Of a DNA stretch of 36,733 nucleotides, positions 35,987 to 36,733 are shown in pieces. The notes under the pieces are model-generated. The model worked only from the letters and a program-made list of their open reading frames with translations, did no database searches and had not been told where the DNA came from. The translations under genes were made by a program, and so were the position numbers. Position 1 is the first letter of the stretch, and every line of letters starts with the position of its first letter. The DNA comes from Candidatus Heimdallarchaeota archaeon (GTDB lineage: Archaea > Asgardarchaeota > Heimdallarchaeia > Heimdallarchaeales > Heimdallarchaeaceae): the NCBI GenBank assembly GCA_019057375.1, contig DXJF01000099.1, positions 1 to 36,733 on the forward strand, read 5' to 3'.

Positions 35987-36457
35987 ATGCAATGGTATTA
36001 TATTTTGATTATTGTGATAGGTACATTATTGTTTGCAATCATATCTCTGGTAGTTTGGTATATGTCTTACATTACACCTTACCCAACAGGGAAAGTTTCA
36101 GATAATATCTCTGTTATTAAAACTGGAATTGTAAATTGCTATGTATACAGTAAAGGTTCTAAACGGATTCTGATAGATACAGGAACATCAACTAAGAAAC
36201 TGATAAAGGGATTGACAACTGTTGGAATAGAACCAGAATCAATTAGTAATGTATTTCTGACACATAGTGATCCAGATCATATTGGTGGAATTTCCCTTTT
36301 TAGTCATGCAAAAATAAATTTTGGAGAAAAATCTAAAATCAAAAATCCTGAGAAATATCTATTTCTTGATGATGGAGAAATAATTGATGTTAATGGAATT
36401 AAAGTACATGCAATTAGCACACCTGGTCACCGTCGTCCACTGAGTGAAGAAAGTTGA
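35987..36457 (+). pseudogene. MBL-fold metallo-hydrolase interrupted immediately after TPGH
   Basis: N-terminal TM, LIDTG, THSDPDHIGG, ISTPGH; then unrelated RRPLSEES* from 36431. The C-terminal metal ligands are missing. Confidence 0.75.
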
Positions 36458-36471
36458 CTAATCTTGCCATA

Positions 36472-36528
36472 CGCGCTCTACCTAGTTAAGGGGAATGGTA
36501 GGAGCGAGAAAGCTTGAGCGTTTTTTTT
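36472..36528 (+). terminator. Hairpin plus T8 tract, terminator-like
   Basis: CGCT-CTACC (36474-36482) pairs with GGTAG-g-AGCG (36497-36506); T8 at 36521-36528. Confidence 0.45.
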
Positions 36529-36561
36529 CTCCCAGGTTTATATATGAAAGTAAACATAGAA

Positions 36562-36733
36562 AGCTAGATGGTGTGCTCTTCAGCACTTGCCTGTTTCGCA
36601 ACTACACAAGTGGTTGTCCCTCAGTAAACTTTCCATGAAACGGGGAGCCTAGCTAGCTCTGTGCTGATAGCCCACTAACTAACACTGTCTTCATGACTTC
36701 CCCTCAACGCACGTGAGGGGATCCACTTAAACG
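36562..36733 (+). ncRNA. Candidate structured ncRNA downstream of an internal TATA box
   Basis: TTTATATAT at 36537-36545. AGCTAG (36562-67) can pair with CTAGCT (36649-54), enclosing GTGCT/AGCAC, CAACTAC/GTGGTTG and TCCC/GGGA stems; a further TCCCCTCA/TGAGGGGA hairpin follows. Confidence 0.4.

Follow-up and report, generated by a model that had tools for sequence, protein, structure and literature searches.

Protein-less, PATE-like elements of the IS605 family, whose omega RNAs are used in trans, are known from Geobacillus stearothermophilus (10.1101/2023.03.14.532601). The mini-element that we describe here resembles them in having transposon ends, no ORF and a guide-RNA scaffold at the right end, and it would likewise depend on transposase and TnpB supplied by other copies; it differs in that its ends are those of a serine-recombinase (IS607) element rather than of a Y1/HUH element, in its archaeal host, and in carrying what appears to be a TATA promoter of its own together with an extra 5' domain from the middle of tnpB. 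The second point of comparison is the IS607 family itself (PMC13565253): relatives of the mini-element encode a MerR-HTH serine recombinase TnpA and a TnpB, lack inverted repeats and target duplication, and share with that family a right-end guide scaffold, scarless excision and a conserved 5' target motif. GG termini and insertion at GG, with an AGGAG/GAGGG TAM, are typical of IS607 (PMC13565253), whereas all copies of the present element end in CGT (...GTGCGT) and follow ACCGT or, as detailed below, a near variant of it; in further contrast to the family, the TnpB of the relatives is about 645 aa long with His at the RuvC-III Asp position, and the copy analysed here is gene-less. IS607 reRNAs are derived from RAGATH-18 (PMC11061315), whereas the Rfam RAGATH-18 model has no match here. 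As in the omega/reRNA of ISDra2 TnpB (PMC8612924), the scaffold lies on the sense strand and ends at the transposon boundary, with a pseudoknot near the guide and a guide taken from flanking DNA; unlike ISDra2, it is accompanied by a conserved RNA module about 1.1 kb upstream, inside the ORF, and the two share no sequence or Rfam similarity. The element is therefore of a known kind, and what is new is that its 5' domain is, by its sequence, not foreign but copied from mid-tnpB; to this we add exact boundaries with empty sites, a direct test of the IS607 assignment and a corrected RNA structure. Our preferred interpretation, which we consider likely, is that an IS607-family derivative of 348 bp without protein genes has its RNA cassette here and provides RNA to TnpB in trans.

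The window, that is, the whole stretch of 36,733 nucleotides that was analysed, is contig C49 of a 3.47-Mb, 159-contig, 89%-complete Heimdallarchaeota assembly. The start of a second contig, C40, is identical (100%) to the last 96 nt of the window, so that C40 continues it. The mini-element, which has no ORF of its own, runs on the forward strand from window position 36434 to C40:144; its first 300 bp are 36434..36733 and the remaining 48 bp are C40:97-144. It splits an MBL-fold hydrolase gene (Pfam Lactamase_B, E = 6e-14) whose 5' part occupies 35987..36433 on the same strand and whose remainder begins at C40:145. The hydrolase ORF, 35987-36457, enters foreign sequence past ...STPGH-R, and the frame is picked up at C40:145 as LGHTAYIVDEE.... 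In five sister genomes the hydrolase is uninterrupted, with the two flanks contiguous and encoding ...STPGHRLGHTAY..., and the empty site in each of them reads ...GGTCACCGT|TTAGGACAT.... Comparison of the filled site with these five empty sites reveals an exact insertion without target-site duplication or terminal inverted repeats, the empty site being scarless; the sole feature common to the target and the right terminus of the element is CGT. Directly 5' of the element, at 36429..36433 on the forward strand, lies ACCGT, the presumed TAM. In the empty sites ACCGT is part of the host gene. The conserved target motif is external to the element and confined to its 5' side: it is ACCGT in 16 of 17 copies of subfamily A and ATCGT in the remaining one, while the 3' flanks are unrelated; in subfamily B and in the protein-coding copies the flank is ACCGT or differs from it by one base. 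A 597-aa ORF 3' of the split gene on C40 (L011:594-2387), itself followed by a gene for a PadR-family regulator, has no Pfam match; lying outside the element and lacking a Pfam domain, it was rejected as the basis of a group II intron reading.

The boundaries were set from 17 aligned complete copies of subfamily A, drawn from this and related genomes, all of which have them in common, together with the empty sites; eight subfamily-B copies were also aligned. Within 36434-36733 no ORF reaches 60 aa, and the sole listed frame is one of 47 aa (36495-36638); since the element codes for neither TnpA nor TnpB, it is non-autonomous. This genome holds three copies, the present one and two at 86-94% identity, one between genes (C81) and one inside an SDR gene (C65). 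The order of parts is a left end, a variable hairpin region that is deleted in the C81 copy, a T8 run, a TATA box, a folded domain, a short variable linker and a right end. The left end, 36434..36473 on the forward strand, is homologous to that of tnpA-tnpB elements, with mini-element positions 1-40 matching loci L099, L095 and L096 upstream of tnpA (nhmmer, E = 4e-7 to 2e-4). The T8 run (36522-36529) and the TATA box TTTATATA (36537-36544), together 36522..36544 on the forward strand, are conserved in the aligned A and B copies with at most one base changed; the TATA box stands about 25 nt 5' of the folded region, and the T8/TATA region is weakly similar to the tnpA-tnpB intergenic region, i.e. 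the tnpB promoter region, of the parental elements. We presume this to be the promoter of the mini-element RNA. Part of the left end (window 36450-36473) and the reverse complement of part of the right end (C40:100-130) have a CTTGCCAGAG-type motif in common, and model positions 16-54 give weak nhmmer matches on the minus strand of every right end; these motifs are probably binding sites for TnpA.

A covariance model of the 5' domain, R1, has 66 matches in 18 of the 83 genomes of the class, confined to two genera; in this genome it matches only the three mini-element copies. The model matches both subfamilies, and a single sister genome has up to 12 such places. Subfamily B, which is absent from this genome, comprises minis of about 390 bp in sister genomes (L035, L039, L101, L102, L108, L110 and L114), with the ends and promoter seen in A and the same P3/P4/CCCUCAGU module, although the helix sequences and linker hairpins differ from those of A.

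The family assignment follows from what lies between the same ends elsewhere. The right end begins in the window at 36697..36733 (forward strand) and measures 85-90 nt; it is common to all tnpB copies, and the last 90 nt of the mini-element match every right end (nhmmer, E down to 1e-29). Full elements consist of ACCGT followed by the left end, an ORF of 210-220 aa with MerR HTH and Resolvase domains, a tnpB of about 645 aa and the right end; in sister genomes, resolvase matches lie about 2 kb upstream of right-end matches on the same strand, and the ORFs between the shared ends (L094, L096) score E = 1e-9 to 1e-11 for MerR and E = 1e-21 to 1e-23 for Resolvase. The TnpB of these relatives has a Cas12f1-like TNB domain (Pfam), matches the NCBIfam models guided_TnpB and IS607_TnpB weakly, and aligns with the solved TnpB-like chains 8hr5_A and 9nzp_A. 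We assign the mini-element, on sequence grounds, to the IS607 family as a protein-less, non-autonomous derivative, and not to IS110 or IscB, because the elements that it matches at its left end and over its last 90 nt have genes for a TnpA of the MerR-HTH serine-recombinase type and for this TnpB of about 645 aa. An IS200/IS605 element with a Y1 (HUH) transposase was rejected in view of the same MerR-resolvase tnpA and because no Y1 transposase (PF01797) was found in this genome or the other 24 of the genus, the control genomes having given matches.

Within this genome, the last 85-90 nt of the mini-element recur at nine further loci. Seven of these lie 3' of complete 2.1-kb copies that contain tnpB only, with open frames of 640-670 residues; the frame of the tnpB-only copy on C102 is broken by a TGA. 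An eighth adjoins a tnpB copy cut by a contig end (C7). The ninth, on C124 (G000:C124:13357-13446; L005:1506-1590), is a solo 90-nt right end with neither left end nor 5' domain, situated directly 3' of the stop codon of an unrelated membrane-protein gene, and its pseudoknot partners no longer match. A cognate IS607 TnpA was not found in this 89%-complete assembly. Four serine-recombinase ORFs of the genome (G000:C56:5306-6061, C127:13421-14179, C16 and C118; 252-262 aa, with an N-terminal catalytic domain and homologues across the family) were considered for this role and rejected, as they have no MerR HTH and are linked neither to tnpB nor to the element ends.

The RNA fold was assessed by thermodynamic prediction and by pair counts over copies. 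That the region is free of ORFs and folds strongly, as the original prediction had held, is borne out: positions 36562-36733 fold at -57.9 kcal/mol (MFE), whereas 200 dinucleotide shuffles give -42.8 +/- 3.8 (z = -4.0) and none of them folds as well; a complete copy from a sister genome has z = -4.9. The broader proposal of a structured non-coding RNA of a mobile element inserted in a gene is likewise supported. The RNA had, however, been placed at an element end, whereas 36434 is the first position of the element, and its right end, on C40, lies 48 nt beyond the end of the window. Among the proposed helices (23 copies from the two subfamilies, alignment A2), the CAACTAC/GTGGTTG hairpin holds, with 97% pairing and four pairs that change on both sides, its place in subfamily B being taken by ACAGGTG/CACCTGT. 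The TTTC-cat-GAAA hairpin and the TCCC/GGGA stem fall away at 53% and 79% pairing, both being displaced by the helix CCTGTTTC/GAAACGGG (36590-36597 with 36637-36644), which is 98% paired with three compensatory pairs; here GAAAC pairs with an upstream GUUUC, giving CCUGUUUC/GAAACGGG, and some copies have GGUUC/GAACC or UAUGGUUC/GAACCAUA instead. The AGCTAG/CTAGCT closure of the proposed multibranch does not survive comparison either, being 58% paired overall and broken, as read row by row, in about 10 of the 17 copies of the subfamily. As for GTGCT/AGCAC, it can form and has one C-G to A-U covariation, but it competes with a long imperfect helix, 36565-36586/36661-36681, which has four covarying pairs and is preferred by both RNAalifold and the MFE fold; this long helix is the better closing helix in subfamily A.

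The resulting 5' domain spans 36565..36681 on the forward strand, as delimited by the MFE fold, RNAalifold on 17 copies and the covariance model R1, and is 84% paired overall across the 23 copies. Its closing helix, 36565-36586/36661-36681, encloses a P3/P4 arm (36590..36644, forward strand) and a small hairpin (36645-36659). In the arm, P3 (36590-36597/36637-36644), which is 98% paired, encloses both P4 (36598-36605/36610-36617), which is 97% paired, and the conserved loop CCCUCAGUAA (36618-36627); there are compensatory changes between subfamilies A and B, and the G.U pairs are compatible with the sense strand alone. When A and B are aligned jointly, P1 and P2 are 58% and 72% paired, figures that understate pairing within each subfamily because the two are out of register there.

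The right end has a conserved structure of its own, evaluated on 54 distinct copies. Hairpin R1 is formed by 36700-36704 and 36716-36720, and its loop ACGCACGU (36707-36714) pairs with the last 8 nt of the element (C40:137-144) in a 7-8 bp pseudoknot that abuts the boundary. Over the 54 copies 95% of cells are paired, with six pairs changed on both sides against 2.0 expected from shuffles; pairing reaches 98-100% in hairpins R1 and R2 and in a flanking helix, and 93% in the pseudoknot, which has two compensatory pairs (C-G to U-A and G-C to A-U). Here too the G.U pairs fit only the sense strand, and the right end abuts variable flanks in all copies. By analogy, it looks like a TnpB omega/reRNA-type scaffold with a pseudoknot at the boundary and a guide that would be read from the flank. 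Rfam 15 was searched with the whole window at gathering score, with the region at E up to 10, with the contig that continues it and, at E up to 1, with two complete copies, and nothing relevant came back, the sole matches being chance snoRNA and sRNA fragments; RAGATH-18, HEARO and other curated RNA families are unmatched in the searches of the region and of the complete copies. In minis from the second genus (L027, L029, L046, L048 and L053-L055), a 12-13-nt insertion that folds into an additional hairpin, GGGUGAAACCC, separates R1 from the remainder of the right-end scaffold.

A striking relation links the 5' domain to the coding sequence of the parental elements. The motif GU(C/U)CCUCAGUUA occurs mid-tnpB, about 1.1 kb upstream of the right end, in all 14 parents, and in all 14 the parental motif GUCCCUCAGUUA is directly preceded by a 7-bp hairpin (ACACUCU...AGAGUGU) and by GUUUUC, the same arrangement as P4 plus loop in the minis. 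Searched with nhmmer, a profile built on this segment of the parents matches minis of subfamily B over 85-108 nt, with E = 0.001-0.003, and the reverse search, from mini to parents, gives E = 0.07. In a codon alignment of the 14 tnpB genes, synonymous codon identity peaks at 0.92 at residues FTLFDQYMQSVPQL, against an ORF mean of 0.57 (window SD 0.11), and is raised over about 90 codons around this peak; where the ORF overlaps the right end it is lower, at 0.84. The mini-derived covariance model R1 is not significant on the parents, giving weak local matches at the homologous mid-ORF site (the best 13 bits, E = 0.18, others down to E = 10), and since this is so, the homology claim rests on the motif with its hairpin, the nhmmer values of about 1e-3 and the synonymous peak. 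These indicate that the 5' domain is homologous to the mid-tnpB segment with the strongest synonymous-site conservation in the ORF. Given that the peak falls on the homologous segment, the parents must carry a constrained nucleic-acid element within their coding sequence, and the two mini lineages have retained only this element, the promoter and both ends. The suggestion of a new RNA class finds no support, the last 90 nt being the shared right-end scaffold and the 5' domain deriving from the parent tnpB. Candidate hairpins of other sequence occur at the same place in the ORFs of paralogous large TnpB proteins of 38-47% identity (G000:C47:49689-51530, C12:71616-73481 and C117:13535-15289; L146-L148), though the encoded residues vary, which hints that the ORF-internal RNA element may be older than the present tnpB family.

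From these features we infer how the mini-element might work, including its transcription, TnpB loading and cleavage, and the part played by the 5' domain. It keeps the left end, the T run with a tnpB-type TATA promoter, a folded 5' domain of about 120 nt and a 90-nt right end that would encode the TnpB omega/reRNA scaffold. A TATA-driven transcript, to which the conserved TATA box points, would begin near 36566-36570, extend past the right end and enter the hydrolase gene in the flank; the RNA would comprise about 215 nt and, beyond them, a guide transcribed from the 3' flank (CUAGGACAUACUGCUU...). This RNA would be loaded in trans onto TnpB made from other loci of the genome, the 2.1-kb tnpB copies, and the loaded protein would recognise, in the manner of restorative homing, the vacated site (ACCGT and its flank). 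For movement the mini-element would need TnpA, the MerR-HTH serine recombinase whose gene is present in full-length relatives in sister genomes. The guide of a TnpB is taken from the 3' flank; the element itself does not store it. The original prediction had reported no convincing guide match to the flank, and given this source of the guide, the lack of a match within the element is expected.

One feature of the parental TnpB bears on what a loaded complex might do. In all 14 aligned proteins (from contigs C21, C65, C92, C102, C144 and C145, the last with two copies, and from loci L094-L100) the RuvC-III position has His instead of the canonical Asp, i.e. NTH-x-NAA vs NAD-x-NAA in 8hr5_A and 9nzp_A, and the residue after this His is Asp in only five of the 14. 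With His in place of the RuvC-III Asp in every copy, DNA cleavage by this TnpB is not assured: judged by sequence, the protein is either a D-E-H variant or nuclease-inactive. The elements that encode it nevertheless look recently mobile.

The 5' domain admits more than one interpretation. We favour, as a guess, an accessory part of the scaffold that in the parents would be supplied by the tnpB mRNA itself; it is a guess because no omega RNA described so far extends anywhere near the parental segment, which is some 1.1 kb away from the right end. Taken to its limit, this would mean a guide RNA assembled from two separate pieces, one the scaffold of the right end and the other a folded module that the tnpB frame encodes about 1.1 kb further upstream, with the minis representing both fused behind one promoter; we regard this stronger form as rather unlikely. 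Were it true, then in combination with the His-for-Asp RuvC-III this would be a TnpB system of unusual RNA architecture, with possibly non-canonical or absent nuclease activity. The main rival, to which we assign a similarly small share of the probability, is that the domain is not part of the guide RNA and acts in cis at another step in parents and minis alike, for instance in the control of tnpB translation or mRNA stability, in nucleating the assembly of TnpB on its own mRNA, or as a conformational switch. The position of the homologous segment in mid-ORF, about 1.1 kb from the right end and with the highest synonymous conservation in the gene, would suit such a role, and to our knowledge the omega RNAs described for ISDra2 and in related work do not need a distant, ORF-internal part. 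The switch in particular is suggested by the loop GUCCCUCA, which resembles the R1 5' strand UCCCCUCA: as a near duplicate of that strand, the loop CCCUCA could compete for UGAGGG. Against a purely cis-acting element stands the observation that two independent mini lineages kept exactly the mid-tnpB segment fused to the right end, behind a promoter, and because both lineages did so, one RNA carrying both parts is the simplest reading.

A self-splicing or spliced intron (group I/II, IStron-like or bulge-helix-bulge), under which the hydrolase gene would stay functional, is far less probable. Two copies in this genome lie sense in genes, where exact removal restores the frame, and the 5' exon would end in U, as an intron would have it. 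Yet among the 17 copies the larger junction-spanning ORFs are sense in five and antisense in three, the other junctions having no ORF or frames of at most 85 aa on either strand; complete copies match no Rfam intron family even at E = 1; the T8 run and the element's own TATA box argue for a separate transcript; and both ends are common to tnpA-tnpB transposons. An IS110/IS1111 bridge RNA or an IscB omega RNA (HEARO) would agree with a mobile element that inserts site-specifically and carries structured non-coding sequence. This reading can nevertheless safely be set aside: between these ends the 14 protein-coding relatives examined have a MerR-HTH serine recombinase and TnpB, and in no case a DEDD recombinase or IscB; neither HEARO nor any other Rfam family matches; and the conserved target motif is confined to the 5' side, outside the element. 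Of the three analogies first offered for the RNA, the omega/reRNA one has thus proved the closest, while the IS110 bridge and IscB ones find no support.

Read as the trans-acting RNA cassette that we prefer, the minis are protein-less, guide-only transposons, in which guide and nuclease could be inherited separately, and such a separation is one of the steps that lead from TnpB towards CRISPR-type systems. This Asgard lineage holds dozens of them, each with a presumed promoter and a richly structured RNA, and the tnpB genes of their parents conceal within the ORF an RNA element whose synonymous sites are more constrained than those of the known guide region. Should this module within the ORF belong to the functional RNA, the scaffolds of large archaeal TnpB proteins would have been mis-delimited, and the minis would give the minimal functional RNA directly. 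For annotation, the minis account for several 'orphan structured RNAs' of these genomes as well as for split genes, here the hydrolase gene and, on C65, an SDR gene.
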